This document shows, one piece after another, positions 6,730 to 24,534 of a stretch of 24,534 nt of DNA. The stretch comes from a virus. Its lineage: Duplodnaviria > Caudoviricetes. The translations under genes and the position numbers were made by a program. A model generated the notes under the pieces. That model ran no database searches. It saw nothing but the letters and a program-made list of their open reading frames with translations, and was not told where the DNA came from. How positions within the stretch are numbered: the stretch's first letter is position 1; the number at the start of each line of letters is the position of its first letter. Where the stretch lies: positions 1 through 24,534 of IMG/VR virus record IMGVR_UViG_3300027819_000050, one strand, 5' to 3'.

Positions 6730-6739
6730 TCTATTGATT

Positions 6740-7003
6740 ATGAAATACCCAAACATTAAAGCCGCCCACCTCTCCCACACTCAAATTGCTAAAGCGCTTG
6801 GGTATGCGAATGTAAAATCATTTAGAACTTCATCGGCTCATCAAAGGCACATGAGAGGGGTTGAGACCGTTTTGGAACTGGGAATTACAAACCAAACTAT
6901 TCCAGGATTAATGAAAATCGCATTGTCTGGAGGTGGATTTAAACCAGACGGGAAGCCTTGCAAAGTTGACATGATTAAATTACAATTAAACCAAATTAAA
7001 TGA
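6740..7003 (+). CDS. Putative HTH DNA-binding protein
   Basis: Likely start ATG 6740 (MKYPNIK); LSHTQIAKALGYANVKSFR resembles a helix-turn-helix. Confidence 0.55.
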   Translation: MKYPNIKAAHLSHTQIAKALGYANVKSFRTSSAHQRHMRGVETVLELGITNQTIPGLMKIALSGGGFKPDGKPCKVDMIKLQLNQIK

Positions 7004-7209
7004 ACAAAACCAGACGCAAAGTAAAATTTTATGAAGGTGACGGCACTCCCTTTAGATCGGTTAAACCAGGCAGAAACGCTCCCTGTCAATGTGGAAGTGG
7101 AAAGAAACAGAAGTACTGCTGTGGGGCTGAGTCGAAATTATACCATTCAAAACCACCACCAAAAACAGATTTAGAGAAGATGATAGAAGAAAATCAGCCA
7201 GCCGAATAA
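7000..7209 (+). CDS. SEC-C motif (Zn-binding) protein
   Basis: KPGRNAPCQCGSGKKQKYCCG matches SEC-C (GRNxPCxCGSGKKxKxCC). Confidence 0.85.
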   Translation: MNKTRRKVKFYEGDGTPFRSVKPGRNAPCQCGSGKKQKYCCGAESKLYHSKPPPKTDLEKMIEENQPAE

Positions 7210-7221
7210 GCTGGTTTTTTT
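7196..7221 (+). terminator. Intrinsic terminator closing the terL-portal insert
   Basis: Hairpin AGCCAGC-CGAATAA-GCTGGTT running into a T7 tract. Confidence 0.7.
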
Positions 7222-7273
7222 ATGCCTGAAAATAAAAACATGTTAAAAAACATAATTGTAAAACATATTTTTA

Positions 7274-7281
7274 TATATTTG
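7274..7281 (+). promoter_or_regulatory. Candidate -7 box of the head/tail operon promoter
   Basis: TATATTTG(C) just after the terminator and 20 nt before the portal ATG; no canonical -33 element. Confidence 0.55.
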
Positions 7282-7301
7282 CCTAACTAATTCTTACTTG
7301 A

Positions 7302-9636: not shown

Positions 9637-10956
9637 ATGGATGAGAAAGAATTATTGTTAAAAGAAATTCAGGGACTTATCGCTGATTCACAAAAAGAAA
9701 ATGTGACAGAGAAAGCACTGAATGACCGTATCGAAGCAATCAACAAGCAGATCGAAGCGAAATTGGACAACGCAGGAATGGCAGCACTAAAAGAAAGTGT
9801 TGACAAACTATTGCAAGCCACAGCAGAAAACGCAGCTGCAATTAAGGCCGTCAATGAGACCGCTAAGCCACAAGGCAAAAAAGGAACAGTAAAAACATTC
9901 CGTGAAGCTATCGAAGAAGCCCTGATGGAAAAATCCGAAGGGTTGCTGGTAGAGAAAAACGATGACAACGGAAAACGTCTTTCACTGAAAGATTATTTCA
10001 CCGAAAAAGGCAACAAAACCACTCCGGTTTTCACGTTGAAGGCTGTTGATATGCTCGAAAGCAATATCGTTCAGAGCAACGTTTCCACAGTTCGTTTGAC
10101 AGAACTTGACCCGAACAGGGTAAGTATCCCGTTGACCATTTACCCGCACGTAATGGAGTGGATGCCTTCAAAAGGTATCACCCGCCCGTACATGAGTGTG
10201 TTGGTGGTTTATTCCTATTCTGACGGAGCCGGGACAAAAACCGAAGGCAGCGCACCTGGTCAGTCCAGCTTCTTGCTGAAAACTATCGAGTTCAAAGCGT
10301 TCACAATTTCAACCTTTGGAACCTTGTCAGATGAAACATTGGACGACCTTCCAGAAGCAATGGATGAAATTGCCATGGTATTCCCTTCCAAAATCCTGGA
10401 CAACGTGGACAGTCAAATTTTGGGCGGTGCAGCTGGTGACGACGTTTCTACCCTGAAAGGTCTGGCAGCAGCCACAAAACACACTAATTGGAATGGAACA
10501 GCTTATGCCGTAACTATCCCTGGTGCAAATATGATCGACCTGATTGATCTATTGGCATTCCAAGTCAGGAATAACAAATATATTCCTGATGCAGTTATCA
10601 TGAATCCTGTTGAACGGATCAAATTAGGTCAATTGAAAGACTTGTTCAACAATTCAATCAGTGACCGACGGATCACCTTCGACACACTTGGCCGACCTGT
10701 TTTCGTTTCTGGTTTGAGAATTTTTGAATCTACCGGAATCACTGCCGACACGATGTTTGTTGTTGACAGCAAACAACTTCTGATTGGAAAGCGTAAAGAT
10801 ATGACACTTGAAATTGGTTACAATGGTACAGACCTTTCAGAAGGCCAAAAAACCGTCGTGGTTAAAGTTCGTGTAGCTTTTGCCGTACGTGATGCTAATG
10901 CTGTGGTTTATTCCGCCGCTGTTGCTGCTGATGCATCTGCACTTGTAAAAGTTTAA
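9637..10956 (+). CDS. Major capsid protein (HK97 fold with N-terminal delta domain)
   Basis: Coiled-coil N-terminal ~130 aa with possible K/A cleavage (TLK-AVDM); KTEGSA, LSDETLDD, DSQILGG and VIMNP motifs. Confidence 0.92.
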   Translation: MDEKELLLKEIQGLIADSQKENVTEKALNDRIEAINKQIEAKLDNAGMAALKESVDKLLQATAENAAAIKAVNETAKPQGKKGTVKTFREAIEEALMEKSEGLLVEKNDDNGKRLSLKDYFTEKGNKTTPVFTLKAVDMLESNIVQSNVSTVRLTELDPNRVSIPLTIYPHVMEWMPSKGITRPYMSVLVVYSYSDGAGTKTEGSAPGQSSFLLKTIEFKAFTISTFGTLSDETLDDLPEAMDEIAMVFPSKILDNVDSQILGGAAGDDVSTLKGLAAATKHTNWNGTAYAVTIPGANMIDLIDLLAFQVRNNKYIPDAVIMNPVERIKLGQLKDLFNNSISDRRITFDTLGRPVFVSGLRIFESTGITADTMFVVDSKQLLIGKRKDMTLEIGYNGTDLSEGQKTVVVKVRVAFAVRDANAVVYSAAVAADASALVKV

Positions 10957-10960
10957 TCCA

Positions 10961-12154
10961 ATGAAAAAGGGATTAATTTTTATTGTGCTGATTTTTGCAG
11001 CAATTATCAGTACAGCAGCAGATAGGAGCTTAACGATTGCACCGGGTTATACCATGCTGAATCGGTTTACCCTGAACGCCAGCGATACTATCACTACGAG
11101 CGCAACCGTAACATATTCGATCACGAACCTTCAGAAGTATATGCAACATCAGGTTTTTACCGTTGCATTAACGACTGTTTCAGGTTCACCTTCGGTAACA
11201 ATTACCGCACAAGGCAGGGTAACATCGACAAGCGCATGGGTAACAATTGGAACCCCTATAACTTGGACAACGACCGGCAATAATGGAAGTATGGCGAGCG
11301 TTGACCCTTATAATTACAACTATTTAAGGGTCACATTTGTAGCAAGTGGAGCAACTCAGTTAACCAAAATCACAGGGTTTGAGGTGAAGACCGCCAACGC
11401 TTATGACATCCCTGCTAATTCCGGCACGCTGACAATCAGTCGAGCGACAACCGGGGTAGTAACCGTAACTACAAAGGACGACGACGCAAACGCTGCCACT
11501 GTTTACCGTGCGGGTGGAACGGGGGCGCTAACTTTAGGCAGCGCAGCAGGGACAACTGCTATTACTTCAAGTGACTGGGCTATCTCAGCTACTGGCGATC
11601 AGACAGGCATGGGTGCAGCTACTTTTGATGGATTGGTAACAGCCACGGCAGGGCTTTCATTTGCAACAGGATCGACAGTGTTCTGGGCAAAGGGTGGAGT
11701 ACCAACAGCGGTAACAACGGGGACGGATGTTGCAGCTTCAGCAGGAGCAAGATGGTGGGTTGAGATAGAAATACCTCACAATGCAACAATAACCGGACTT
11801 TCTTACTTAGTTGGGTCTGTGGGTGGTACTGATTCTGTTATGGTTCATCTCTACAATTCAGCAGGTACGCAGGTAGCGACTTCAAAGAAAACAGGCGCAG
11901 CTCACGGTGACTTAGTTGGAACTGCAGCGCAACTTCAATCGGTAGCATTCACCGCACCTTATGCGGCTGTTGCAGGTAAATATTTTGCCGCCGTTCAGTT
12001 TAACGGTACTACCGCCAAATTTAGGGCTTATCTCATTCCTGGTAGTAAGTTTGTGGCCAATACAGCGGCAGGTACTTACGATACAGCAGTAGCGAGTATA
12101 ACGCCTGGAAGTACGTTTGTTGCAGACAAAGGGCCAGTAATATCGACATACTGA
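10961..12154 (+). CDS. Signal-peptide-bearing, Thr/Ala/Gly-rich beta protein in the head-decoration/head-fibre position
   Basis: MKKGLIFIVLIFAAIISTAA Sec-type leader; beta-rich mature part; starts 4 nt after the capsid stop. Confidence 0.7.
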   Translation: MKKGLIFIVLIFAAIISTAADRSLTIAPGYTMLNRFTLNASDTITTSATVTYSITNLQKYMQHQVFTVALTTVSGSPSVTITAQGRVTSTSAWVTIGTPITWTTTGNNGSMASVDPYNYNYLRVTFVASGATQLTKITGFEVKTANAYDIPANSGTLTISRATTGVVTVTTKDDDANAATVYRAGGTGALTLGSAAGTTAITSSDWAISATGDQTGMGAATFDGLVTATAGLSFATGSTVFWAKGGVPTAVTTGTDVAASAGARWWVEIEIPHNATITGLSYLVGSVGGTDSVMVHLYNSAGTQVATSKKTGAAHGDLVGTAAQLQSVAFTAPYAAVAGKYFAAVQFNGTTAKFRAYLIPGSKFVANTAAGTYDTAVASITPGSTFVADKGPVISTY

Positions 12155-12318
12155 TGGAAGCAATAGTTAGAAATGGTCAGAGAATCAGCGGAAAAGTTGC
12201 CGAAATACTCGTAAGGGTAGGTTTGGCAACTCCCGCCGAAGCCAGCGAGGTGGTCGTTAAAAAACCTATTCAGAAAACGCCAGTGAGTGGGTCGTTAAAA
12301 AAGAAAGTTAAAAAATAA
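12154..12318 (+). CDS. 54-aa protein with Lys-rich tail (not in ORF track)
   Basis: MEAIVRNGQRISGKVAEILVRVGLATPAEA...KKKVKK; TGATG overlap; resembles small post-capsid head accessory proteins. Confidence 0.65.
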   Translation: MEAIVRNGQRISGKVAEILVRVGLATPAEASEVVVKKPIQKTPVSGSLKKKVKK

Positions 12319-12321
12319 GTT

Positions 12322-12954
12322 ATGTCATTCATTGATAGCTCATATTTTGTAGGTGAAGCGTTTATACCGAATATTTCGGCGAACACGACAAACATTAACC
12401 AGGCAATTACTCAGTATGAAAAAGAAATACTGATTCACCTGCTTGGTTATAAGTTGTATTCGCGTTTGATCGCTGACCTCACGGGAGCGGGAGGCGTTCC
12501 GGTTACTCAAATTTACAAGGATCTGGTTAATGGTGCGGAGTTTACACACACCTTCAGGGGTCAATCATTCCTACTGAAATGGGAAGGCCTGCAAAATACT
12601 GCAAAACAATCATTGATAGCTTACTATGTTTACTATCAGTATGTCCAACGAGATGTTACACACTTGTCAGGGGTTGGAAATATCAAGACTCCCTCAGGAA
12701 CAGAACAACGGGCATCATCGGTAAACAAACTTTGCAACGCATGGGAGCGCATGAGGGAACTGTATGGAATTGTACCACCGGAATATAAAAGGTATTTCGG
12801 TGGTTATAAACAAATTCAGTCTTTATCGGCTGACCAACTTCCTTATACTTTCAATTGCGACCCATCTGCATATAACTTTCTTTTTGCCAACAAAGCAAAT
12901 TATCCGGATTGGCGGTTCACACCACAATGGAATATTAACGCATTTGGAATATGA
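12322..12954 (+). CDS. Putative head-tail adaptor/connector
   Basis: Position after the head genes; MSFIDSSYFVGE...YEKEILIHLLG...SLIAYYVYY pattern seen in Bacteroidota phage connectors. Confidence 0.6.
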   Translation: MSFIDSSYFVGEAFIPNISANTTNINQAITQYEKEILIHLLGYKLYSRLIADLTGAGGVPVTQIYKDLVNGAEFTHTFRGQSFLLKWEGLQNTAKQSLIAYYVYYQYVQRDVTHLSGVGNIKTPSGTEQRASSVNKLCNAWERMRELYGIVPPEYKRYFGGYKQIQSLSADQLPYTFNCDPSAYNFLFANKANYPDWRFTPQWNINAFGI

Positions 12955-13439
12955 ATTTCAAGGATCTATTTAAAACTGTTGTCGATAATGTCAGGTTGGA
13001 ATACGACCCGACAAACAATCTACGGCCTTACTTTCAGTTTGGTTTGTATGCTGACCTTATCGAAGCATTAAACATTAAGGATAACAACCAGATTGGAAAG
13101 TACCCTTTGATTTGGCTGGTTTGGGAAAAGTCCGACAATCAACAGCGATGGATCGACCCTTGTTTGTATTCTATTTCTGTTCGTGTTTTTATTTGCGATC
13201 TGGCAGTTCAGGATGACAACACCGATGAACGCTATACAAATGTCTATCCTGCACTTAACTCAATTTTTGACATGTTAAACAAGGAATTGAAATACAGTCC
13301 TCAGATGGGTTTTGAAAAGGATTACAGCTACACACTTAACGATCTCCCGGCCTGTCAATTGGATGGCTCTTCTGGTATTCCTGATTTTATTTCAGCTAAA
13401 GAAATCAATTTCAAAAATATTTACGTTTATAACACATAA
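12951..13439 (+). CDS. Putative tail terminator/completion protein
   Basis: 162 aa with KYPLIWL; immediately upstream of the putative major tail gene. Confidence 0.5.
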   Translation: MNFKDLFKTVVDNVRLEYDPTNNLRPYFQFGLYADLIEALNIKDNNQIGKYPLIWLVWEKSDNQQRWIDPCLYSISVRVFICDLAVQDDNTDERYTNVYPALNSIFDMLNKELKYSPQMGFEKDYSYTLNDLPACQLDGSSGIPDFISAKEINFKNIYVYNT

Positions 13440-13445
13440 AAAATT

Positions 13446-14342
13446 ATGGCAACATTCAAATACAGCGGTAACGGGGCAAGCAAGGCACTCCTTCAGGACG
13501 TGAAAGGCTTGATCATCCTTACTAAGAACACTACCTTATCGGTCGCCAATGCAAAAACACTGGTCGCTGGATGGGGCTCATTGATCAACCCATCGACTAC
13601 TGCAGCGATTGCGGCAACGTATATCGACATAGCCAGAGGGTTTGAATCAAAGACAAAGGCGGCTGAAATGGTCACCTCTAATACAGGATTTGAGGAAAAG
13701 GCGAAAGATTTTCCTCCTCAGTTCATCGCATACGGATATATTTCCTATGCTGATTATCAAACATGGTTTGCAGCGGATGGTCAGGAGTTCGATTTTATTC
13801 CTGTTTTGCAGGATGGTAAATTGATTTTTCCGTTAACTTCTGCTGGACTTATGATCGGATTCTGTGGTCGGTTGATCATTACTAATTTCGATCTTCCAAA
13901 AGCTGGCGGTGCAGAAAAAGCAAAGTATGCTGAATTTACCGTTTTGTTCGATGACGTGGATCAGATGAAGAACGCCCAGATTGTTACACCGGCATTTACC
14001 CGCAAAGAATTGAGCGCACTCGTTCCGGTTGGTTTGAATTTGGAAGTCATTACGGCTTACGAAAGCACTGGAGGTACAGTAGTAGTGAAAGCTACTAATA
14101 GAGCCACTGGTTTGCCGTATGTAGGACTTACAACAACAGCCGAATTTGAGATTGTTTCAGTTAGTGGTGACACTGGCGGGGCGGTTACGGTTGTTGGTGC
14201 AACATCTGCAAATCTGGGATTATACACCCTTACTGTCCTGAATGGTGCTGCGAAGATGACGAAGCCATTCGAGGTAAGAGGAGTGAAGATTACTGCTGGG
14301 GCTGTTGCTTATCTTACTAATGTGATTAATATACCTGTATAA
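13446..14342 (+). CDS. Putative major tail (tube) protein, probably with a C-terminal Ig-like domain
   Basis: 298 aa, MA start, structural composition, beta-rich C-terminus; no sheath gene visible. Confidence 0.65.
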   Translation: MATFKYSGNGASKALLQDVKGLIILTKNTTLSVANAKTLVAGWGSLINPSTTAAIAATYIDIARGFESKTKAAEMVTSNTGFEEKAKDFPPQFIAYGYISYADYQTWFAADGQEFDFIPVLQDGKLIFPLTSAGLMIGFCGRLIITNFDLPKAGGAEKAKYAEFTVLFDDVDQMKNAQIVTPAFTRKELSALVPVGLNLEVITAYESTGGTVVVKATNRATGLPYVGLTTTAEFEIVSVSGDTGGAVTVVGATSANLGLYTLTVLNGAAKMTKPFEVRGVKITAGAVAYLTNVINIPV

Positions 14343-14539
14343 TGGCACAGTTCGGCAAAGTAAGCGTAAAGGATGACAATCATTGGGATAAGTGGAGTTG
14401 GAAAGACTTTTCAGATTTCTACGACAACTCATTGAAAGGTCACTGCACGGAATCGCTCGAAGAGGTTGCTAAGGCTCTTGGGGTCGTTATTCCCGAAAAA
14501 GTCAAACCTGATAAGGTAAAACCAGCCGTTGAGGCTTAA
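14342..14539 (+). CDS. Hypothetical protein (possible tail assembly factor)
   Basis: 65 aa, TAATG-coupled to the tail tube gene. Confidence 0.55.
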   Translation: MAQFGKVSVKDDNHWDKWSWKDFSDFYDNSLKGHCTESLEEVAKALGVVIPEKVKPDKVKPAVEA

Positions 14540-14546
14540 ACAAAAT

Positions 14547-14578
14547 AGGTGTTACGAGAGATTGTGGCACCTTTTTTT
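14547..14578 (+). terminator. Intrinsic terminator after the capsid-to-tail-tube block
   Basis: AGGTGTTACGA-GAGA-TTGTGGCACCT hairpin (GNRA loop) running into a T7 tract. Confidence 0.8.
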
Positions 14579-14596
14579 ATTCAAATTAAAACTAAA

Positions 14597-15034
14597 ATGA
14601 GCAGAATTATCGACATACAGAAAAAGAGCAATCAGTACATGGCAGCATTCAAAGATAACGTGATCCGTGTGATTGAATCAAATGAGAAAATCATGCTGAA
14701 CATGAATAAGTCTCAGATGTTAGGCTCTTTTGATGCTATGGACAAGTCGCTGATTCACTCCCGGACTAAGTCGGAATATCTAAGCAAACCCTATGCACGG
14801 CGCAAAGGCAAAAGCAAACCCAATCTCTTTGACCGTGGAGATTTTCAGGGCGGTATGTTCATGACTATGCCAACGGAAAAAGATTACATCATAACGTCAG
14901 ACGATCCTAAAGTAAATTTTCTGATTGGCAACTACGGTTCTATTTTCGGGGTAAGTCCAAAGAACCAACCGAAAGCAAAAGAGGTGAATGATAAATCAAT
15001 TGTCGAAGATTATTTTAAAAACGTATTCCAATGA
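14597..15034 (+). CDS. Putative neck/tail-completion (virion morphogenesis) protein
   Basis: Start ATG 14597 (MSRIIDIQ); YARRKGK..PNLFDRGDF...YGSIFG resembles morphogenesis-family motifs. Confidence 0.55.
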   Translation: MSRIIDIQKKSNQYMAAFKDNVIRVIESNEKIMLNMNKSQMLGSFDAMDKSLIHSRTKSEYLSKPYARRKGKSKPNLFDRGDFQGGMFMTMPTEKDYIITSDDPKVNFLIGNYGSIFGVSPKNQPKAKEVNDKSIVEDYFKNVFQ

Positions 15035-15483
15035 GTTACGATTCAATAAATGACACAAAGCTGCATCAATGTAGGGTAGGAACCTTATTGTGTAATGCAG
15101 CAGATGAACTAATTAGAAGAAGCGAGATTCATGACGCTTCAAAAATCGAAAGTCCCGAAAAAGAACTATTCGATGAATACACCCCAAAATTGGCGGGGTG
15201 CACGTATGGCAGTGATGAATATAAGGAATTTTTAACAGGGTTAAAAGTCGCCTTAGATCATCATTATGCAAACAACTCACATCATCCAGAACACTACGAA
15301 AATGGAGTTGATGGGTTTGATTTATTCGATTTGATTGAAATGTTCTTCGATTGGAAGGCCGCAACAGAAAGACACAATGATGGAAATATTTACAAGTCAA
15401 TCGAAATAAATACTAAGCGATTTAACCTTTCGGATCAGGTCGCTCAGATTTTTAAAAATACTGCAATTAAACAAGGCTATTAA
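15031..15483 (+). CDS. DUF5662-like HD-type metal-binding protein
   Basis: IHDASK, LDHHYANNSHHPEHY and DLIEMFFDWKAA motifs. Confidence 0.75.
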   Translation: MSYDSINDTKLHQCRVGTLLCNAADELIRRSEIHDASKIESPEKELFDEYTPKLAGCTYGSDEYKEFLTGLKVALDHHYANNSHHPEHYENGVDGFDLFDLIEMFFDWKAATERHNDGNIYKSIEINTKRFNLSDQVAQIFKNTAIKQGY

Positions 15484-15484
15484 A

Positions 15485-16108
15485 ATGTTAAAACCGCTGC
15501 ACGAAATAACCCTAAAGGATGTCATTTTACTTGACGCCACAAAGTCTGCAACCGTATTAAAAAAATATTGGTTCATCCCGTTATTTTTATGCAGGAAGGA
15601 ACTTGAATCGTTGGCAAAACAAATATTTGAATCTATCGGAGGTAAAACTATTGATGATTTACAAGATCAATTTGACAGGCTTACAAGTTATCGGAGGCTG
15701 CTAATTTTAGAGGCTCTCTATAAGGCTGTGCAGATCGAATTTGAGTTAAAAGGCAGAGTTACGGCATGGAAGGTACTTTTAGGAAAAGACTTCAAGGAAT
15801 CCCCACAATTGGAGCAAGTCTTGGCAGAGGTTTTGAAGCATACAGGCATAACAATTGAGACACCTGAAAGCCTGAAAGATTTTGCCGACTACGTTCAGTT
15901 TAGAATAGATAAACATGCTGAAATGTTTCCTGAGATTGAAGAGGTAAAAGAAACAACTCCGCTGATTGATGTTTTTTATTCGGTGTTCAACTACATGAAT
16001 GAGCCGTTCAACGACAAGATGCTACTGATTGCCTTTATCGGAATGAAAAAAATGGCAGAAAGCAGGATTTTAAAACAATCAAATACAGACGAAAATGAGC
16101 TTCAGTAA
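15485..16108 (+). CDS. Hypothetical protein (possible tail assembly chaperone)
   Basis: 207-aa helical protein immediately before the tape measure gene. Confidence 0.5.
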   Translation: MLKPLHEITLKDVILLDATKSATVLKKYWFIPLFLCRKELESLAKQIFESIGGKTIDDLQDQFDRLTSYRRLLILEALYKAVQIEFELKGRVTAWKVLLGKDFKESPQLEQVLAEVLKHTGITIETPESLKDFADYVQFRIDKHAEMFPEIEEVKETTPLIDVFYSVFNYMNEPFNDKMLLIAFIGMKKMAESRILKQSNTDENELQ

Positions 16109-18587
16109 CGAAATTGCAGATGTTGAAGGACTAAAAAAAGCCTTTGACGGATTGGATGGATCTTTAAATAAGAATGCAACCGATCTTTTGAAACTCATTA
16201 AGGTTTACGAAGACTTGAATAAGGTTACCCAAAATACCGCTCAGACTGCTGAAAATTTAGGCAAAGCGCAAAAAGCAACAGCGGACGCAGCAAAACAGAA
16301 AGAGGCTATTGATAAAAATATCATTGCGACAACCGAAAAAGTAAATAAGGTTGAAAAGGATACTATTGAGGTAATGATAAAAAAGAGACTTACCACAGCA
16401 GAATCAACAAAAGAAATAACGCTTCAAACTAAGGCTGAATTAGCATCTATTGGAAGCAAGCAAAAACTGATTGCAGAAACAGCTATTTTAGAAAATCAAC
16501 TCAATAAAGTTAACCTAACCACAAAGGAGGGCGCAAAGGAGGCGGATAGATTAAGGGCACAAATTGACAAAAATAACGTAACGATCAAGGCAAGCTCATC
16601 CGCTTTAGGTGCGCAAAAAATCAATATTGGGAATTATGCCAGCGCACTTTCAGGGTTACCTGGTCCGATCGGAGAGGTAGCCGGTGGATTCGAGGGACTG
16701 TTGTCTAAAGTTAAAGCATTTGGTCCGTGGGGGGCACTTGTTGCAGGTGGATTACTTGCATTATCAGCTCCGCTTGTTGCATTTTTCACGAAAACAGAGG
16801 AGGGCATGGATTTGATGGAGCAAAAAGTGGCAGGGGCTAAAGCTGCTTTTGCTGTTCTTACCGGAGAATTAATAAAGGGCGGTAGGGCTATGGTGGAAAT
16901 GTTCGATGATCCTAAAGATAAAGTCAGTACATTTTACACAAAAATATTCACCTTTATTAATCCCGCACTGACTGCACTAGGTAAAAGAATGGATTCAGCA
17001 AGCACAACAGCCCAAAGTGTTGTAAAAGAGCAACAGAAGTTAGAGGACAAGGAAAATGCAATGATTGTCGTACGGGCGAAGGCAAGCGATCAGATTAAAC
17101 AAGCGAGGTTAATTTATGCACAGGCAAATTTACCCCTTAATGAAAGAATAACAGCCCTAGCAACAGCACTTGACCTTGAGGGAAAAACGGCAGATGCAGA
17201 AATAAAGCATCAGGACGAAGTGGTTGCCCAACTCCAAATAATTAAAGATGAAAAGTTAAAAGTTGGCCAATGGCTAAGAACGGATGAAACGAAGTTGCAA
17301 CAAGCAATAGCAAAGACAATCGAATTATCTACAGATAGCGCAGGCAGGCAAATAAGGGCAACCAATACCCTTAAAAAAGCAAAAAAAGAACTAATTGACG
17401 AAGGGGAGGCTTTAAATAAAGAGGAGGCTGATAATAGGTTGAAGGCTGTTGAGATAGCCAATCAAATCGAAAAGGGCAAAATCAATAAGAAACATATTGA
17501 CGGTATTTCAGATACTAAACAATATCAGGCAGAACTTATCGCACAAGAAGTAATATTCCTTAACGCAAAACAGGCACTCTACAAACCTGAATCCAAAGAA
17601 TATCAGGATATTGAATTACAGAAACAGGCCATAACGATTAAGTCACAGGATGATATTCTCAAAGCTATTCAAGATAGGTTCAAACAGCAAAAAGAAATTG
17701 AAGAGCAGGGGACTAAAGATCTTCGGGATTTACTTAAAGAGCAAACCACGGCTGAAGAAAAGGCGGCGGATGATGCAATTAAAATTGGCGAAGATTTGAT
17801 TAAACAAAAGGAGAAACTGGACGAAGACGCAGCAAAAAAAGAAATAGACAGGAAGAAAAAAATCAAAGAGGCCGCAATTGATTTAGCTTTTGCGACAATG
17901 AATGCAGTGTTCGATATTAACGCAAACAAATTAAGTGCCGAACTTTCCGACCTTGAAAAGAAAAAAGACAAAGAGTTATCGAATAAGAATTTAACCGAGG
18001 CGCAAAAAGCGGCAATCGAAGCCAGTTATCTGAAAAAAGAGAATGCGATTAAAACCAAACAGGCAGAAAACGACAAAAAACAGGCTCTATTTAACATTGC
18101 GATGAATACAGCGGTCGCAGCGGTGAAGGGTTTGTCTGAAGGTGGGCCACTTCTTATGGCTATTTACATTGCACTTGGATTAGTTCAGGCAGCTGTTGTA
18201 ATGTCTAAGCCACTCCCTAAATACGCTAAAGGAACCCAGTCAGCCGAAAGTGCAGGTATCTTTGGAGAGGCCGGAAGGGAGTTAATGTTCCCGGTCGGAG
18301 GTGGTGCAATTATGGCAGATAAAGCCACATATTTTGATGGTGATAAGTTCAAGGGAGCTAAGATTTACAGCAATCCGGAAACCGAACGAATGATGTCAAT
18401 GGTTTCAGATCGGAATATCATATCCAGACCGCAACATGATGATAGGCTATTGAACAAAATGGATGAACTAAAAAAGGCAATCATTCAGAAGCCTATTGCA
18501 ATCTATGACAAAGATCATCGAATGATAGGGCAAGGCAATAGCCAATATCAGGAAATTTATATGAACCGCTTAATTAACAGAAATTGA
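16095..18587 (+). CDS. Tail tape measure protein
   Basis: 830-aa Ala/Lys/Glu-rich coiled coil with NIGNY motif, hydrophobic segments, and C-terminal PLPKYAKG...FGEAGRE. Confidence 0.85.
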   Translation: MSFSNEIADVEGLKKAFDGLDGSLNKNATDLLKLIKVYEDLNKVTQNTAQTAENLGKAQKATADAAKQKEAIDKNIIATTEKVNKVEKDTIEVMIKKRLTTAESTKEITLQTKAELASIGSKQKLIAETAILENQLNKVNLTTKEGAKEADRLRAQIDKNNVTIKASSSALGAQKINIGNYASALSGLPGPIGEVAGGFEGLLSKVKAFGPWGALVAGGLLALSAPLVAFFTKTEEGMDLMEQKVAGAKAAFAVLTGELIKGGRAMVEMFDDPKDKVSTFYTKIFTFINPALTALGKRMDSASTTAQSVVKEQQKLEDKENAMIVVRAKASDQIKQARLIYAQANLPLNERITALATALDLEGKTADAEIKHQDEVVAQLQIIKDEKLKVGQWLRTDETKLQQAIAKTIELSTDSAGRQIRATNTLKKAKKELIDEGEALNKEEADNRLKAVEIANQIEKGKINKKHIDGISDTKQYQAELIAQEVIFLNAKQALYKPESKEYQDIELQKQAITIKSQDDILKAIQDRFKQQKEIEEQGTKDLRDLLKEQTTAEEKAADDAIKIGEDLIKQKEKLDEDAAKKEIDRKKKIKEAAIDLAFATMNAVFDINANKLSAELSDLEKKKDKELSNKNLTEAQKAAIEASYLKKENAIKTKQAENDKKQALFNIAMNTAVAAVKGLSEGGPLLMAIYIALGLVQAAVVMSKPLPKYAKGTQSAESAGIFGEAGRELMFPVGGGAIMADKATYFDGDKFKGAKIYSNPETERMMSMVSDRNIISRPQHDDRLLNKMDELKKAIIQKPIAIYDKDHRMIGQGNSQYQEIYMNRLINRN

Positions 18588-18588
18588 T

Positions 18589-20838
18589 ATGACATTTCCC
18601 GCTGAGATATTATCCCACACGCCTAAAAAGATTCAGTTCGAATTGATGTCAGACACCGATAGGATCATTTGCGACAGTGAGCCAATCAACTGGAAGTCTG
18701 GAACACTTGAATTAAAACGAGATTTGGAGGCAGGCGGGGTATTTGTCAACTATCAACAGGATTCTTTGACCTTCGTTGGCAATGGAGCCGTGTTTTTACG
18801 GAACCTTTATGATTCCTTCGAACTGACTTCCCGGGCAAAATGCACGTTGATAATTTCGTATTGGAAAGAATTCGATTTGACCACGCCGGCAAACAGTAGA
18901 CAATATGTTGAGTTCCCTTCACGGTTCGAGATAAATTTTGCCTTCTACGAAACTGTAAAGATAGGCCGTTTCTGGTTTGGGGTCAGGGTTAAGGCAGTAA
19001 ATAATTCAGTTCAAACCAAACTGGACAACCGGATAGATGTTGACGTAGATATTTCAAAAGTCATAGACGCTAAAATAACCACGATTGGCGGGATTAAGAT
19101 TGACAGTTACGGAAGTGATGATAATATGCTAAAGAAAGGAATAGACTTTGCAGCAACAAATATCATTTATTTCTCCGAATTGAATTGGTCGCAAATAGGC
19201 CACGGTGTTTTATTAGACAGAATCACAGGAACAGCTAGTTATACCGCTATGCCATTATCTAAGGTTGGATTGACAGGAGAATTTCCAGAGATTCAATCAG
19301 TAGGGTATCAAACTAGAATTGTAAATATTGCAAACATTACGCCTTTTTTCAAAAGTGCTAAATTTGATTATAACTCAATTGATATTTATTACCATTGGAA
19401 CACGATTGTAAATCAACGACATATTGGCGATTTTAATTGGAGAATACAAATTGTTGAAATTGATCCTGCTGGCACTATTTATGCAACTCATTACGAAAAG
19501 GGATTTGGAGGAATAAATCAATATTATAGCGATGAAGGTACAATTACAATTTCAATTAAAAAGGGAAATGATTTAAAATTCGTCTGTAAAAATCAGGGAT
19601 ATGACAATACCACGGCTTATACAGAAATACAGGATCTGAAGATCACCCAAACAGTTTCACAGTCGCCGGCAATTACGGGTGAAGGATTACCGATCTATGA
19701 AACAATAGAGCGGCTTTGTCAACATGATTTAGATGTTCGCTATCCTATTTATTCTGATTTTTTTGGCCGGCAGGATGTACAGTACAGACCAAATGTTTAT
19801 TATGCGACTGAAAGTGTTGACCGATTCGCTCACGTAATGGGTGGAATGAATCTCAGGGGTGCACTACTCAACAATCCAGATGCACCAATAGTATTGAATT
19901 TCAAAAATCTAATGAAATCAATTAAGGCACTTTGGAATGTAGGATATTCACTTGAAACAAACCTTTCGTTATTTGGAGACCCACTCCCCCGAATAAGAAT
20001 TGAGGAATATGCACACTTTTTCGAGAATGTTAAAATTGATTTTAATCCACCGCTTTCAAGTAGGATCAATAAATATGACATTCAGTCGCAGGTAATGCCG
20101 GAACTTGTGCCTGTTGACTTAAAGTCAGGTTTTGAATCATTTGAATATCTCACTGCTAACGGACGTGCAGAGCCGAACACAACAAGCCAGCGAACATCTG
20201 CAATGAACACGGCCACAAAATTTGAGGCCATATCATGGTTAAGAGGAGACACGAAAGGGATTTATGATAATATTTCAAATCCTATTGGTGTTAATGGAAG
20301 TACAGATACAAAAGGAGACGGTTCTGTATTTATCATCAAATCCCGCAAGCATCTAACGAGCACGGTAAAATGGATTCCAGAAACAGATCAGAGTATTACA
20401 GTTCGACATGAATCGAGCCTATTTAAAAATGCTCTTTTAAACCGATATTTCACACCGACACGAATATTGATTCGCCATATAAATAGGATTAAGGCCGGAA
20501 TGATGAAGTTAAATTCCGATTCAGTTCTCAAATTTCAGGCATCAGATAAATCTAATTCATTGGAAACCTCCACGGATGGTGGAGTAACTTCTCTATTTGA
20601 AAATCAGGATTTAATAATTTCGTCACTTGCAAACCCAATTTACAAAGCAATTAAGCACACTGCAATAATGATTTTCACCCGGGCTGACTTAGCCTTGGCG
20701 ATTGCTTATCCCTACAGATATTGGGATTTTGGAACTGATTTAAAAGGGAACAACGTATCAGGATTTTTATTAAATTTGAAACAACAAAATTTGAGCGACA
20801 AAGCGGAAATAACCATAATAGAAAGATTTGTACCATGA
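18589..20838 (+). CDS. Putative tail tip/baseplate hub protein
   Basis: 749 aa directly after the tape measure gene; called from synteny only. Confidence 0.5.
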   Translation: MTFPAEILSHTPKKIQFELMSDTDRIICDSEPINWKSGTLELKRDLEAGGVFVNYQQDSLTFVGNGAVFLRNLYDSFELTSRAKCTLIISYWKEFDLTTPANSRQYVEFPSRFEINFAFYETVKIGRFWFGVRVKAVNNSVQTKLDNRIDVDVDISKVIDAKITTIGGIKIDSYGSDDNMLKKGIDFAATNIIYFSELNWSQIGHGVLLDRITGTASYTAMPLSKVGLTGEFPEIQSVGYQTRIVNIANITPFFKSAKFDYNSIDIYYHWNTIVNQRHIGDFNWRIQIVEIDPAGTIYATHYEKGFGGINQYYSDEGTITISIKKGNDLKFVCKNQGYDNTTAYTEIQDLKITQTVSQSPAITGEGLPIYETIERLCQHDLDVRYPIYSDFFGRQDVQYRPNVYYATESVDRFAHVMGGMNLRGALLNNPDAPIVLNFKNLMKSIKALWNVGYSLETNLSLFGDPLPRIRIEEYAHFFENVKIDFNPPLSSRINKYDIQSQVMPELVPVDLKSGFESFEYLTANGRAEPNTTSQRTSAMNTATKFEAISWLRGDTKGIYDNISNPIGVNGSTDTKGDGSVFIIKSRKHLTSTVKWIPETDQSITVRHESSLFKNALLNRYFTPTRILIRHINRIKAGMMKLNSDSVLKFQASDKSNSLETSTDGGVTSLFENQDLIISSLANPIYKAIKHTAIMIFTRADLALAIAYPYRYWDFGTDLKGNNVSGFLLNLKQQNLSDKAEITIIERFVP

Positions 20839-22025
20839 TTTGGAGTTCAGTTTTAAACAGTATTACTTTTAAAAATGTTCCAACCACGAACACATACCCG
20901 ACCCGTTGGACAACTTTGCACGCTGATTTTAAGCAGGCAGGATCCTTAATTAAACCTTATAACCAAAAGTTTCAAAAAGATCATGTCGTTTATATCCAAT
21001 TTGAGAGCGATATAGCCGATTCGATAACTTTGAAGGCTTACAACTCCGTGACCCGTGCAGAGATTGGATCATTTACCGGTGCTTATGCCAAATCATACGG
21101 AGTAGTCCCAAATATTCGCTATTATACCAACTTCGTAATAACTTTAGGTTCAAGTTATTATGAAAAGCAGGTTTATTTTGTAGCGACACAGGGATCGAAT
21201 GTTTTGACCAGTGAACCAATATTCACGACCTACTTGACTTATCTGCTCCAAAGAGGTGTGATGAAATACATTAAAGTCACAAACCTCGACAGAATAGAAT
21301 CTGATTTAGATAACCGGTTTATTGACTGGTCGGCTTTGACTTCAACAGGTAACTATATTGATTGGTTCGTAGAGGCTTCGGAGATTGACCTGAACAATAA
21401 AGATGAGTCTGAAATTTTGGAAGGGTCGCAAAGCAAAACAATCCTTTCAGCCTCTAACTATCTTGGTGTCGTTTTGGGAGTTGGAAATGTACCTCACTAC
21501 ATGGTTGACCGGATGAGCAATGCCAGCAATTTGGATATTTTTATGGTCAATAATGTTCAGTATATTAAGGACGGCGGGGTCGATACTCCGAAATTTGGCG
21601 GATCAACTTCATTCCAAATGACTATGAAGCTAACTCAAAAATTAGCAATCGGTATCAATGTTGATAATATTGGTATCACAGAGGGATCGGTAACGCCTCC
21701 AATTTCAGGCACTCCGATGTATGTCGGTTCAGTTACTTCAGCCGCACCTAATGAGACAGAGGTTAAAACTATTTCGTCAGTAGCAGCCTCGAAAGTCAAT
21801 CAAACGAAAGTCTACACCATCACAGATGCAAGGTTCTGTTTTGCTTATCCTACCAGTTTCGGGGCGTTGAGTTCAATACTCGACAATGCCGGAGATGAGA
21901 TAATTTCAGGTTTCAATATCACTTATCTTAATTTCACAATCGGAGCGGCAACTATTAATTTCACTATTTGCACTTTGAAAAATTTAACCTCTGTAACGAG
22001 TTATTCGGTGCAGTACAAATGGTAA
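20835..22025 (+). CDS. Putative tail structural protein
   Basis: 396 aa, ATGA-coupled; C-terminal beta domain (FAYPTSFGALSSILD). Confidence 0.5.
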   Translation: MIWSSVLNSITFKNVPTTNTYPTRWTTLHADFKQAGSLIKPYNQKFQKDHVVYIQFESDIADSITLKAYNSVTRAEIGSFTGAYAKSYGVVPNIRYYTNFVITLGSSYYEKQVYFVATQGSNVLTSEPIFTTYLTYLLQRGVMKYIKVTNLDRIESDLDNRFIDWSALTSTGNYIDWFVEASEIDLNNKDESEILEGSQSKTILSASNYLGVVLGVGNVPHYMVDRMSNASNLDIFMVNNVQYIKDGGVDTPKFGGSTSFQMTMKLTQKLAIGINVDNIGITEGSVTPPISGTPMYVGSVTSAAPNETEVKTISSVAASKVNQTKVYTITDARFCFAYPTSFGALSSILDNAGDEIISGFNITYLNFTIGAATINFTICTLKNLTSVTSYSVQYKW

Positions 22026-22029
22026 CGAC

Positions 22030-22698
22030 ATGGCAACAGGCACAGTTAGGGTAATAGGTAACATAATGGCAACACAAAGGCCGTTAGATGAACATTATTT
22101 GAACGAAGGGGCTGCATGGGCAACCACAACAGCTGCATTAGCCGGTATTCCGCTAGGTTCACGCTCTCCAGGGAAGCAGGTCAATATTGCAGGGGTACTA
22201 TACTGGTTTGATGTTGGGCTAACTACCCTTTCAACTGTTTTCGCCGCCGCTCTTCCGATAGCATCTCAGGTAACTATTGTTGACGCAGCGGCAATTTATA
22301 CAGCCACACAGGTAGAGGCTGCGCTGGCCGAGGTTATGACCGCTCACAATGCTTTAGCTACAACCGTGGCAGGATTTGGCACAGGAACAAATCAAACTTC
22401 TTTTACTATTTTATTACCAGCATCATCGACTATTGCCGGAAGACTGGCAGGAGTTGTAACAAAACCAACTGGCTGGACATTGGCAGCAAGTTCAACCGTT
22501 AATCTTTTGGTTACACATACAGTAACCGGAAGGAAAGTATCGAGTATTAATGTTTGGGAAATTGACGGGACAAACGAACGCTTATTACAGCCGTTTTCGT
22601 CTGCTTATTCAGGCTGTTTGGTTAACGCATTAACCTGTTTGATCGAAGGGCTTGCACCGACTGCATTAGCGATAAGAATAGAAATAATCATTCCATGA
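22030..22698 (+). CDS. Putative tail fibre/adaptor protein
   Basis: PLDEHY...AALAGIP...R.PGKQV....YWF N-terminal motif seen in Bacteroidota phage fibre-associated proteins; Thr/Ala-rich. Confidence 0.5.
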   Translation: MATGTVRVIGNIMATQRPLDEHYLNEGAAWATTTAALAGIPLGSRSPGKQVNIAGVLYWFDVGLTTLSTVFAAALPIASQVTIVDAAAIYTATQVEAALAEVMTAHNALATTVAGFGTGTNQTSFTILLPASSTIAGRLAGVVTKPTGWTLAASSTVNLLVTHTVTGRKVSSINVWEIDGTNERLLQPFSSAYSGCLVNALTCLIEGLAPTALAIRIEIIIP

Positions 22699-23378
22699 GT
22701 GTAGCGACTAAATACAACCCTTCTGTAGCTTGGAGAACCCTTGCAAGTCAGGTATTCCAACTGATACGGGAAACGGTTAACGATCCCGCAACGTATCGAA
22801 TGACTGTAGCTGCTATTGACTCAAACAACCCGGGAGCCGGAACAAAAGCAATTGGCTATTACCTGGTTGATTTTTTGGGAGTGCCTTATTTGATTATCGG
22901 TACTACTTCCACAACGGTTGATGTTCAGGATGATTTTCGGGTCGGTCGATGTCCAACATCCGGCAAAATGGCAGTGATTTACAAAGCAGTTTACAATGGT
23001 AGGGCTTTGTATCTTGGACAAGTTGATTTTCAACATTTGCACCCGCTGGCTTTCAATAATTACCATCGCTTTGAAATTGCCCTAACTTGGGCAAACGATC
23101 CAAACGCTAAAAAAGTACCGTTCACGTCTCTTGATGTCCCGATCATTTCAAACTATCAAACAACGCAAACAGACCCCGAAGATGCAGCAAAAACGATAAA
23201 TTATGCAGAACTTTACAATGAAGACCCTTGTGTTCGGTGTATTATTGTCGTTGACGCAAATACAGAATACCAGCTTCAGCAAATGCCACAGTTTACAAAG
23301 GTCGCCGGATTGATAAATACAGTTTTTTTTACTCCAGGGTTTACATGTTCAGGCAGATTAATAATATCCAAAGGATGA
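22695..23378 (+). CDS. Hypothetical tail-region protein
   Basis: 227 aa, ATGA-coupled at both ends. Confidence 0.6.
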   Translation: MSVATKYNPSVAWRTLASQVFQLIRETVNDPATYRMTVAAIDSNNPGAGTKAIGYYLVDFLGVPYLIIGTTSTTVDVQDDFRVGRCPTSGKMAVIYKAVYNGRALYLGQVDFQHLHPLAFNNYHRFEIALTWANDPNAKKVPFTSLDVPIISNYQTTQTDPEDAAKTINYAELYNEDPCVRCIIVVDANTEYQLQQMPQFTKVAGLINTVFFTPGFTCSGRLIISKG

Positions 23379-23959
23379 AAAAGCTACTCATAATTTTGAT
23401 CACCTTCCTGATGTCAGGAATTTGTTTTGCTCAATTTACAAAACCGTCAGGGGTTACGCCGATTACTGGCTATACATTTTTTTACAACCCAGCCGATAGT
23501 ACAATGACCGTTTGCTGGGGCAACCCGCAAAAATGTAATACTTTCGTTCAGCATTTTGACACCACGAAATTAGCCGGATGGGTAAATAACAGGAAATTAC
23601 TGAGCTATAAGCAAATAAAAGATACTTTGTCTAAGTCTGGTTATGCAACTAATTACCGGCTATTGCACAAGATCGACAGCATAATGGGTTTGGTTAAATA
23701 TCGCAATGACAGCATTGCGAATTCGGGGTACTTCACAAATTATAAAGCATTAAGCAAGGAAGATAAGATCACGGCTTATGAGCAGACAATCACAAATGGT
23801 GTGGCCGTATACACGGTTCCTTTTATTCTGAAATCCACAGCAATGGTGATTTATAACTATCAAATATTGCGTAACACCCTTTGGACAGGGGTAGGTACAA
23901 ATACATTGACTCTATATATTGACCCTCGGACATACGATTATTTAAAAATTCAAAATTAA
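23375..23959 (+). CDS. Signal-peptide-bearing repeat protein in the fibre region
   Basis: Likely start ATG 23375 (ATGA overlap): MKKLLIILITFLMSGICFA-Q; three internal repeats. Confidence 0.75.
   Translation: MKKLLIILITFLMSGICFAQFTKPSGVTPITGYTFFYNPADSTMTVCWGNPQKCNTFVQHFDTTKLAGWVNNRKLLSYKQIKDTLSKSGYATNYRLLHKIDSIMGLVKYRNDSIANSGYFTNYKALSKEDKITAYEQTITNGVAVYTVPFILKSTAMVIYNYQILRNTLWTGVGTNTLTLYIDPRTYDYLKIQN
23558..23764 (+). repeat. Three degenerate protein-level repeats D[ST]xxx[AS]G[WY]x[NT]N[RY][KR]xL
   Basis: DTTKLAGWVNNRKLL / DTLSKSGYATNYRLL / DSIANSGYFTNYKAL. Confidence 0.7.
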
Positions 23960-23965
23960 AGTATC

Positions 23966-24534
23966 ATGAAAAAGATTTATTTATTGTTTTTTTTATTGGC
24001 AATTTTTGTCAACTCTTTCGGGCAGGCAACACCTACAACTAACATGAGGATTGCCACGGCTACAACGGCCTTCGGGGTTAATATTCCTGTGGGTTTTACT
24101 ATTTATGATGTTGGGGCTAACAAATACTATGTCTGTAAGGCCGCAACAATTTCAACGGGAACCCTAACTGCCAACGCTGCTAATTTTCAGGAAATATTAA
24201 CTACTGTTCTGGCAGACGGGAAAGTCATCATTGGTAATTCTTCCGGTGTTGCTGCTCCCGTTTCTGTTACAGGTGATATGACCATCACAAATGCAGGAGT
24301 AACTACCGTAGCGAATGCTGCTGGCAACATGCGAGTCAATGGGACGTTAAAAATTGTAGGTACAGCCGATGATGCCGCTCCTGATTCGATCCTTACAGTG
24401 GCTGCGGGTATCTTTAAACGGTCTGCTACTTCATTATTTCAGATGGCATCTGCGGTTAAGACGGCTATAGTTGAGGAAATGGAAGTAGCTAATGCCGATA
24501 GTGCATCCGTTGGTAGGTATTACTATACCCTAGC
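23966..24534 (+). CDS. Signal-peptide-bearing tail-fibre-like protein (3' truncated, not in ORF track)
   Basis: MKKIYLLFFLLAIFVNSFG-QATP; frame open to the window end; contains LADGKVIIGNSSGVAAPVSVTGDMTITNAGVTTV, a fibre-shaft-like motif. Confidence 0.8.
   Translation, partial: MKKIYLLFFLLAIFVNSFGQATPTTNMRIATATTAFGVNIPVGFTIYDVGANKYYVCKAATISTGTLTANAANFQEILTTVLADGKVIIGNSSGVAAPVSVTGDMTITNAGVTTVANAAGNMRVNGTLKIVGTADDAAPDSILTVAAGIFKRSATSLFQMASAVKTAIVEEMEVANADSASVGRYYYTL

Follow-up and report, generated by a model that had tools for sequence, protein, structure and literature searches.

Three genes in the late operon of a tailed phage, whose host is likely a Bacteroidota bacterium, probably encode accessory virion parts that are exported to the periplasm and docked onto particles at lysis. 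The three, ORF10961, ORF23375 and ORF23966, lie in the 24,534-nucleotide stretch of DNA analysed here (the window), and an initial annotation had proposed export and lysis-time addition for their products. This reading draws its support from the retention of the leaders, from a cement- or head-fibre-like fold and position, and from leader-bearing proteins annotated by MS/MS in the tail slot of cultured phages; the annotation's alternative, deposition in the host envelope, appears less likely. To our knowledge, assembly of tailed-phage virions is regarded as a wholly cytoplasmic process, from which a periplasmic route for virion parts would depart. A literature search of titles and abstract openings, with subscription journals and preprint supplements outside its coverage, returned no periplasm-routed virion parts of tailed phages.

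Table 1. Positions of the features discussed in the text.
Feature	Position	Strand	Basis
Candidate Bacteroidota -7 element	7274..7281	+	21 nt before portal gene; motif match only
HK97-type major capsid protein, no leader	9637..10956	+	PHROG 10 major head protein, E 4.5e-17
ORF10961: predicted Sec/SPase I leader, 19 aa, cleavage between A and A	10961..11017	+	sequence; homologues have S/G at -3, A at -1
ORF10961: N-terminal jelly-roll domain, cement-like	11018..11401	+	model pLDDT 89.5; jelly-roll matches Z 8-9.4 only
ORF10961: Gly/Thr/Ala-rich stalk, variable length	11402..11665	+	family members 315-910 aa
ORF10961: C-terminal carbohydrate-binding-module-like tip, exchangeable	11666..12154	+	fold match to cyanophage A4 gp25
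Leaderless neck and tail operon	12154..22698	+	adaptor 12322, tail tube candidate 13446, tape measure 16095, distal tail 18589, 20835, 22030
Last leaderless tail gene	22695..23378	+	ATGA-coupled to leader-bearing cassette; equal junction in L073-L075
ORF23375: leader and Gln(+1) protein, 194 aa; first tail-fibre cassette gene	23375..23959	+	5 O-glycosylation sequons on repeated stalk
ORF23966: leader and Gln(+1) protein, 238 aa when complete, truncated by window end; second cassette gene	23966..24534	+	equal slot in L073

Leaders and gene coupling

ORF10961 (10961-12154, 397 aa) starts 4 nt past the stop of the major capsid gene, ORF23375 (its length counted from the MKK start) shares an ATGA overlap with the stop of the last leaderless tail gene, and ORF23966 starts 6 nt past ORF23375, all three junctions being as tight as the initial annotation had described. 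The full length of ORF23966 was taken from a 100% identical protein (P0131), and the stretch 20000-24534 is matched without any difference by two assemblies, which are possibly the window's own source.

Each product begins with MKK followed by a hydrophobic core of 13-15 residues, has a small residue at -1 and is predicted to be cleaved after residue 19 (between A and ADR in ORF10961, A and QFT in ORF23375, and G and QAT in ORF23966), and as far as sequence can tell all three fit the Sec/SPase I pattern of a basic n-region, a hydrophobic h-region and small residues at -3 and -1. A home-made leader rule, written after homologue leaders had been seen, flags exactly these three among the 36 ORFs of the window, in agreement with the signal peptides first proposed for them. 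It also flags 36 of 40 distinct ORF10961 homologues from fetched loci compared to 1 of 232 homologues of 14 core head and tail proteins, and because of this difference the leader is not a chance feature of the family; loss of the leader among homologues, which the initial annotation had named as evidence against its reading, is not what was found. Across 79 full-length homologues the h-region has a mean hydropathy of 3.0 and is 29% identical to the query, against 48% for the mature domain, and the residues flanking the cleavage site are constrained as listed in Table 1. Gln at +1, which the Q-rule describes for SPase I substrates of Bacteroidota (PMC5837995), is invariant as Q20 in the alignments of ORF23375 (9/9) and ORF23966 (3/3), but ORF10961 has Ala at +1; among its 79 close homologues Ala occurs in 29, Gln in 16 and Thr in 14.

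None of the three has a lipobox with Cys at +1 of the Llp, Cor or Bor type, and Pfam and NCBIfam gave no match to a T9SS type A or B C-terminal domain. Pfam and PHROG returned nothing for the three, NCBIfam gave weak, unrelated matches, and PDB sequence searches gave nothing meaningful.

These results bear on a rather unlikely explanation in which the genes are envelope morons, exported but remaining in the periplasm or on the host surface for receptor masking, superinfection exclusion or adhesion and never reaching the virion. Exported phage proteins of such kind are known (T5 Llp, lambda Lom and Bor, Cor), bacterial surface proteins can likewise have CBM or jelly-roll folds, and related loci have other small leader-bearing ORFs outside the structural operon. 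Against this explanation, the proteins lack a lipobox or T9SS domain that would retain them or display them on the surface, and the genes have no apparent promoter of their own. The nearest plus-strand copies of TAnnTTTG, the Bacteroidota -7 promoter motif, precede the ORF10961, ORF23375 and ORF23966 starts by 2.4 kb, 2.3 kb and 0.57 kb, and the late transcript may begin at the candidate element in Table 1. Just upstream of 23375 there is a weak sigma70-like site (9/12), but such sites occur at chance level (40 vs 42.5). Motif scans, a weak method, agree with the original claim that the genes have no visible promoter of their own; a conserved slot likewise points away from sporadic moron insertion, yet the head gene is absent from Cellulophaga phage phi19:1. 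Q-rule proteins of Porphyromonas gingivalis prophages (Nixviridae) resemble those studied here in their SPase I leader and Gln at +1, and are, in PMC10367356, five genes read as outer-membrane modifiers and not virion parts, in favour of morons; the one such protein examined, of 144 aa, is of another kind.

A predicted head fibre behind the capsid gene

ORF10961 is predicted to be a head fibre in which the jelly-roll serves as capsid anchor and a Gly/Thr stalk carries a CBM-like tip, with the major capsid protein as the presumed docking surface. Fibre- or beta-rich mature regions were claimed at the outset for all three products, but ORF23375 itself is no classic fibre. Single-sequence folding of ORF10961 reached a pLDDT of 35. 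The jelly-roll has 228 relatives, and its fold matches are generic, to PirA, CBM and GOLD; leads to the Bbp16 cement family are weak (score 0.85; 1 of 43 jelly-roll members at E 0.0025), and modelling the jelly-roll in complex with two capsid cores gave a score of 0.00, which carries no weight for or against docking. Stalks in the family run from about 60 to >600 residues. The tip model matches chain 9jwb_Z, taken as A4 gp25 from chain length and the paper's description, with Z 15.5, rmsd 3.7, 156 aligned residues and 15% sequence identity, and the Bxb1 tail tip with Z 12.5; the same tip also caps leaderless phage proteins (L021, L023, L026, L027) and is missing from about half of ORF10961 homologues.

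Jelly-roll cements and head fibres of tailed phages include BPP-1 Bbp16, T4 Hoc/Soc and lambda gpD; of these, Hoc/Soc and gpD are known to join the head late, once it is mature. Like the ORF10961 model, such proteins (crAss001 gp21/gp29, Bbp16, Hoc/Soc, gpD) are accessory and docked on the finished capsid, with anchor, stalk and binding tip; unlike ORF10961, they are made in the cytoplasm. The crAss001 proteins gp21 and gp29 bind via residues 1-38 and 1-58, the word 'signal' being absent from the paper (PMC10172136), and crAss001 and HFTV1 were set aside as precedents because their main texts mention no signal peptide. Auxiliary cement gp25 of cyanopodophage A4 (PDB 9JWB), a solved capsid cement with a CBM, shares the fold of the ORF10961 tip and displays it on the capsid, but docks by an N-terminal arm, and the accessible text of its paper mentions no signal peptide (PMC12002296); in ORF10961, by contrast, the tip is preceded by a leader, a separate jelly-roll domain and a stalk.

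A survey of relatives for leader and position, as the initial annotation had suggested, bore it out on both counts, with the ORF10961-family gene directly after the capsid gene in 34 of the same 40 loci and, in most loci, between the capsid and head-tail adaptor genes. Stand-alone proteins consisting of a leader and a jelly-roll occupy this slot in siphophage-, podophage- and Mu-like genomes, behind PHROG-confirmed capsid genes in L079, L084, L087 and L088 (the last a Mu-like myophage prophage of a Bacteroidetes MAG) and behind a presumed capsid gene in podophage-like L085. A full leader is present in 120 of the 150 best jelly-roll relatives and a hydrophobic part alone in 16, and Gln stands at +1 in all 43 aligned stand-alone forms. 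A GTDB scan with the head-fibre alignment gave no match, and tblastn against cultured phages gave none for ORF10961, the 749-aa tail protein or the stand-alone jelly-roll.

A fixed slot behind unrelated capsid genes speaks against envelope morons. It is also very improbable that these are soluble lysis-time products like the exported two-jelly-roll XepA of PBSX, acting as decoys, receptor blockers or lysis helpers loosely associated with particles. XepA does turn up in the fold search (E 4e-4, although rmsd exceeds 20; Atlas lead 0.84) and the stand-alone gene of L088 lies two genes before an endolysin; in most loci, however, the gene is far from the lysis genes, and stalks of variable length with exchangeable tips are typical of virion fibres.

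A probable tail-fibre cassette with leaders

Beyond the leaderless tail operon, several genes of which are homologous to phi19:1, ORF23375 and ORF23966 are likely tail-fibre-module proteins. Residues 1-123 of ORF23375, covering leader and stalk, are 43% identical to a 1246-aa S74 tail fibre in L074. The cassette lies between the distal tail genes and the lysis module in L073-L075, with an endolysin downstream in L074, and the window ends before the lysis genes. In L074 and L075 all three genes of this interval bear leaders, the first being the tail fibre (PHROG 1980, Peptidase_S74), and the interval contains no fibre that lacks a leader; this arrangement, together with the fibre chaperone on the L074 homologue, again argues against morons. 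That homologue belongs with the trimeric tail fibres and spikes that carry a Peptidase_S74 chaperone but differs from known ones in its leader and 20 sequons, while ORF23375 differs from S74 fibres in being short and lacking S74. Neither ORF23375 nor ORF23966 contains a fibre domain with a Pfam, PHROG or PDB match; in a fibre test their Atlas neighbours were phage fibre proteins, with scores below 0.9. ORF23966 has an internal repeat that is duplicated in one homologue. A C-terminal module common to both proteins is a hint only (hhalign probability 9%), and its likening to the T7 gp17 N-terminal domain found no support in searches.

Leader-bearing structural proteins in cultured phages

In cultured Cellulophaga phages, leader-bearing genes are annotated in GenBank notes as structural by MS/MS: all four of gp101-104 in phi19:1 ('structural protein, experimental MS/MS'), four of five such genes in phi10:1 (gp091-094) and all three of gp085-087 in phi18:3. 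The window and phage phi19:1 have head-tail homologues and gene order in common, and phi19:1 likewise has its leader-bearing genes in the slot after the distal tail genes. The leaders, which go unmentioned in the GenBank notes, are of the same type as those here, mostly with Gln at +1, but the proteins have no sequence homology to the three ORFs and are sequon-poor, and phi19:1 and phi10:1 have no leader-bearing gene after the capsid gene. Since no homologue of ORF10961, ORF23375 or ORF23966 was found in a cultured phage, the MS/MS annotations support the virion reading through position and leader type only. They run counter to envelope morons, although co-purification of envelope proteins with virions may also account for them.

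O-glycosylation sequons

The mature proteins also contain sequons of the Bacteroidota O-glycosylation motif, a feature missed by the initial annotation. The motif is restricted to non-cytoplasmic proteins (PMC12871550) and was counted as D-S/T-[AILVMT], with expected numbers from shuffling; shuffle p-values overstate independence because homologues are related. ORF23375 has 5 sequons against 0.6 expected (p 0.0002) and its family 37 against 5.3, with D41-S42, D62 and D112 invariant in 9 of 9 sequences. Stand-alone jelly-rolls have 164 against 45, with E-S/T and D-S/T-polar controls depleted, and D42-T-I in the jelly-roll is kept in 61 of 79 homologues. The window's leaderless late proteins, in comparison, have 17 against 17.9 expected. 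Taken alone, ORF10961 (3 vs 2.05) and ORF23966 (2 vs 0.9) are not significant, and in head-fibre N-domains the sequon is raised (65 vs 28) along with the reversed motif (48 vs 28). D291-S-V was discarded as evidence of glycosylation; it persists in 3 of 4 full-length tip homologues that have no leader, so its conservation is structural. Nine leader-bearing virion proteins of cultured phages have fewer sequons than expected (10 vs 26), and glycosylation as a universal purpose of export was rejected on this ground. Overall, sequence patterns strongly suggest host O-glycosylation of ORF23375 and of the jelly-roll domain and weakly suggest it for ORF23966.

This enrichment also weighs on the idea that the proteins are virion parts assembled on the cytoplasmic side, with the leader holding them briefly at the inner membrane or serving as a chaperone, or with a fraction that escapes export (or uses an internal start) and is trimmed by the phage protease. 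We consider this idea unlikely. Tailed phage assembly is established as cytoplasmic, and some capsid proteins of related phages (L002, L039, L079) have hydrophobic N-terminal extensions. The P. gingivalis prophage study suggests that prohead protease cuts such leaders (PMC10367356). However, small residues at -3 and -1 with Gln at +1 fit SPase I and glutaminyl cyclase, both periplasm-side, and a sequon enrichment specific for Asp and for the +2 position makes sense only beyond the inner membrane.

A proposed periplasmic route

In the favoured reading, the genes would be expressed from within the late operon, and their conserved leaders would direct Sec export and SPase I cleavage, upon which the +1 Gln of the two tail proteins would cyclise to pyroglutamate. 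We infer that the proteins stay soluble in the periplasm because, besides lacking a lipobox and a T9SS C-terminal domain, they show no membrane anchor after the leader, and the host's general O-glycosylation system would modify their D-S/T-hydrophobic sequons. Opening of the inner membrane by holin and endolysin would then let the jelly-roll dock on finished capsids like a cement, so that the stalk of the head fibre would hold out its glycan-binding tip; the tail proteins would dock on the tail tip. Likely purposes would be access to periplasm-only chemistry (glycan, pyroglutamate, disulfides) and keeping parts that are sticky or bind glycans away from the site of particle assembly. Filamentous phage coat proteins pIII and pVIII are virion proteins routed through Sec and SPase I; unlike the parts proposed here, they are membrane-anchored and assembled during extrusion without lysis, in an unrelated virus class.

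A broader proposal, which we put forward tentatively, is that Bacteroidota phages of all three tail types possess a second, extracytoplasmic branch of virion assembly, in which Sec would secrete the capsid cement, the head fibres and the complete tail-fibre cassette. Maturation by the host's SPase I, glutaminyl cyclase and species-specific O-glycosylation, storage in the periplasm and attachment during lysis would follow, such that virions would wear the glycan of their last host. Such a branch would alter the all-cytoplasm rule of tailed-phage assembly, and lysis would become part of assembly, whose completion would have to await the opening of the inner membrane. Phage host factors and possible routes to resistance would then include the host's Sec, SPase I, glutaminyl cyclase and O-glycosylation, and virions could gain a host-derived glycan coat which, if true, could shape host range and shielding. 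For annotation, signal-peptide genes of Bacteroidota phages that are read as morons may instead encode receptor-binding proteins.

Leader-bearing genes in the late region

The window covers the late region of a long-tailed phage and encodes the small and large terminase subunits, portal, a protease homologous to gp087 of Cellulophaga phage phi19:1, an HK97-type capsid protein, neck and tail proteins and the tape measure; the 46-kb contig L004 is identical to it over the overlapping part. Based on the phi19:1 homology, a jelly-roll relative in a Bacteroidetes MAG prophage and leaders with Gln directly after the predicted cleavage site (Gln(+1)), we infer a Bacteroidota host.

Leaders, meaning predicted Sec/SPase I signal peptides, were called with a home-made n-h-c rule distinct from SignalP. 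In the window 3 of 36 ORFs were positive, only ORF10961, ORF23375 and ORF23966, whose coordinates and intergenic gaps in the initial annotation proved correct on re-check. The rule was also positive in 36 of 40 distinct ORF10961 homologues from the comparison loci and in one of the 232 core structural homologues. Of the four rule-negative ORF10961 homologues, visual inspection shows an evident leader in two, a third is truncated at a contig end and the fourth is frameshifted, its leader sitting in the preceding ORF. Across 79 full-length ORF10961 homologues the hydrophobic core has a mean hydropathy of 3.0 (minimum 2.3) and diverges faster than the mature domain (29% versus 48% identity), with Ala at position -1 in 58 of them and Gly in a further 8. 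Since hydrophobicity is kept despite faster divergence and a small residue precedes the cleavage site, the leaders behave at the sequence level as genuine signal peptides, export itself being predicted. That the leader is instead used on the cytoplasmic side we regard as quite unlikely.

Jelly-roll proteins encoded beside capsid genes

A model of the mature ORF10961 chain, built with a 104-sequence alignment (pLDDT 89.5), predicts a 128-residue jelly-roll with generic structural matches (Z 8-9.4), a Gly/Thr/Ala stalk and a tip whose best structural match is cyanophage A4 chain 9jwb_Z (Z 15.5), followed by a Bxb1 tail-tip protein (Z 12.5). The A4 cement is described as trimeric, situated on the capsid and equipped with a carbohydrate-binding module (PMC12002296). 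Family members range from 315 to 910 aa. By comparison of homologues the tip is exchangeable; many homologues carry other C-terminal domains in its place, and the ORF10961-type tip (about 55-60% identical) also caps leaderless proteins in other phages. Of the 40 distinct loci, 34 have the gene directly 3' of the capsid gene; three of the other six are contig ends, one is a frameshift, one has the gene two genes further on and one has it behind a divergent presumed capsid gene. The hydrophobic N-terminal extension on capsid proteins of related phages (Table) may reflect membrane-tethered prohead assembly, and the window capsid protein is without it; leader-like capsid-protein extensions are likewise remarked for P. 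gingivalis prophages (PMC10367356).

A profile search found 228 jelly-roll relatives. In the listed set of 150, a full leader is present in 120 and a hydrophobic stretch alone in 16. The remaining 14 show neither; most of them seem by eye truncated or mis-started, and P0200 may be a truly leaderless relative. About 60 relatives consist of a leader and a stand-alone jelly-roll of about 150 aa, with Gln(+1) in 43 of 43 aligned, and their genomic context was taken from five loci (Table). Because the jelly-roll gene tracks unrelated capsid genes, it would most simply encode a capsid cement, which in some members is extended into a fibre.

Features of the window and of comparison loci
Locus	Position	Feature
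L079		Stand-alone jelly-roll, siphophage-like; 3' of capsid gene, one small ORF intervening
L084, L087		Stand-alone jelly-roll, siphophage-like; 3' of capsid gene
L085		Stand-alone jelly-roll, podophage-like; 3' of presumed capsid gene (identity by position)
L088		Stand-alone jelly-roll, Mu-like contractile-tail prophage; 3' of capsid gene
Window	3498-5900	Intein-like insertion with LAGLIDADG endonuclease inside terminase large subunit (uninterrupted, 480-490 aa, in most relatives)
Window	7000-7209	69-aa ORF immediately upstream of portal gene; Cys-rich, SEC-C-like motif
Window	15031-15483	DUF5662 gene between tail genes; absent at equivalent position in L073 and L074
L002, L039, L079	7658-9097, 7310, 6348-7736	Capsid protein with hydrophobic membrane- or leader-like N-terminal extension
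L005	9868-11062	Head-fibre homologue as 71-aa leader-bearing ORF and separate 336-aa ORF; frameshift or assembly error
L054, L060, L065, L068	11462, 8263, 11216, 12136	Leader-bearing, coiled-coil-like small ORFs (85-120 aa) directly 3' of head-fibre gene
L035, L040	652-2700, 2410	Small leader-bearing, sequon-containing ORFs upstream of terminase, outside structural operon
L070	15394-18006	GH5 and CBM6 protein with leader and 13 sequons, on viral contig
L074	13738-14262	Leader-bearing 174-aa tail-cassette protein with 10 cysteines

The tail cassette and cultured relatives

Besides themselves, ORF23375 has eight homologues and ORF23966 one, and no family match was found for either. The junction upstream of ORF23375 recurs in three viral loci, followed there by three consecutive leader-bearing genes. 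The first cassette gene in L074 and L075 encodes a tail fibre of 1246 and 1236 aa, respectively; that of L074 has PHROG tail-fibre matches, an S74 chaperone at its C-terminus and 43% identity to ORF23375 over residues 1-123. With a leader-bearing fibre in the cassette, an endolysin gene next and no leaderless fibre gene in between, the cassette seems to serve these phages as their receptor-binding module. The cysteine content of one L074 cassette protein (Table) suggests that export also serves disulfide bonding in the periplasm.

The strongest evidence for leader-bearing proteins in tailed virions comes from MS/MS annotations of cultured Cellulophaga phages. Phage phi19:1 and the window have a common gene order and homologues (the proteases match pairwise at E 8e-27 and the adaptors at 2e-20, and profile comparison links portal, capsid and tape measure). 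Its gp101-104, 3' of the distal tail genes, have leaders in 4/4 and Gln(+1) in 3/4 and are all structural by MS/MS according to GenBank annotation, as are the likewise leader-bearing phi10:1 gp091-094 and phi18:3 gp085-087. None of them is homologous to any of the three window ORFs, and no leader-bearing gene was found 3' of the capsid gene in the siphophages phi19:1 and phi10:1. We consider it very unlikely that the leader-bearing proteins are free proteins of lysis time.

O-glycosylation sequons

O-glycosylation in Bacteroidota is described at D-S/T-hydrophobic motifs (sequons) and only in non-cytoplasmic proteins (PMC12871550). ORF23375 has 5 sequons versus 0.6 expected and seven members of its family together 37 versus 5.3, with control motifs flat; the 17 leaderless late window ORFs have 17 versus 17.9. 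Among 56 stand-alone jelly-rolls we counted 164 versus 45, with control motifs depleted (E-S/T-hydrophobic 5 versus 18, D-S/T-polar 11 versus 33). Taken singly, ORF10961 and ORF23966 show no enrichment, the D291-S-V sequon is retained in leaderless homologues, and the reversed motif is raised too in head-fibre N-domains. Pooling the leader-bearing ORFs across loci gives just a 1.33-fold enrichment, and in nine leader-bearing virion proteins of cultured phages sequons are rarer than expected (10 versus 26). Given these mixed counts, glycosylation is likely for part of the leader-bearing system but does not explain export universally. The sequon excess independently suggests that the leaders deliver to the periplasm.

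A proposed periplasmic route to the virion

The initial annotation had proposed periplasm-routed virion decoration by three Sec-exported proteins. The leaders, operon coupling, conserved gene slots and sequon excess, together with predicted folds, form its basis here. Leader-bearing proteins would be exported by Sec, cleaved by SPase I, retained in the periplasm, as they have no lipobox, anchor or T9SS domain, and modified there; lysis would then mix the compartments and allow docking onto heads and tails. We judge this mechanism as a whole to be fairly probable. The nearest text found concerns Q-rule genes in P. gingivalis prophages, interpreted there as membrane modifiers (PMC10367356). That the leader-bearing proteins are envelope morons seems unlikely to us; the L035 and L040 ORFs upstream of terminase (Table) may be true ones.

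Among the titles and abstract openings that literature searches listed we found no precedent for periplasm-routed virion parts of tailed phages. Cement, head fibre and tail fibre are known kinds of protein, and what is new is the proposed periplasmic route. The window's contribution is threefold: a single siphophage combines leader-bearing modules for head and tail, jelly-roll relatives accompany capsid genes in phages of three tail types, and phi19:1 is a syntenic relative in culture on which the proposed route can be tested.
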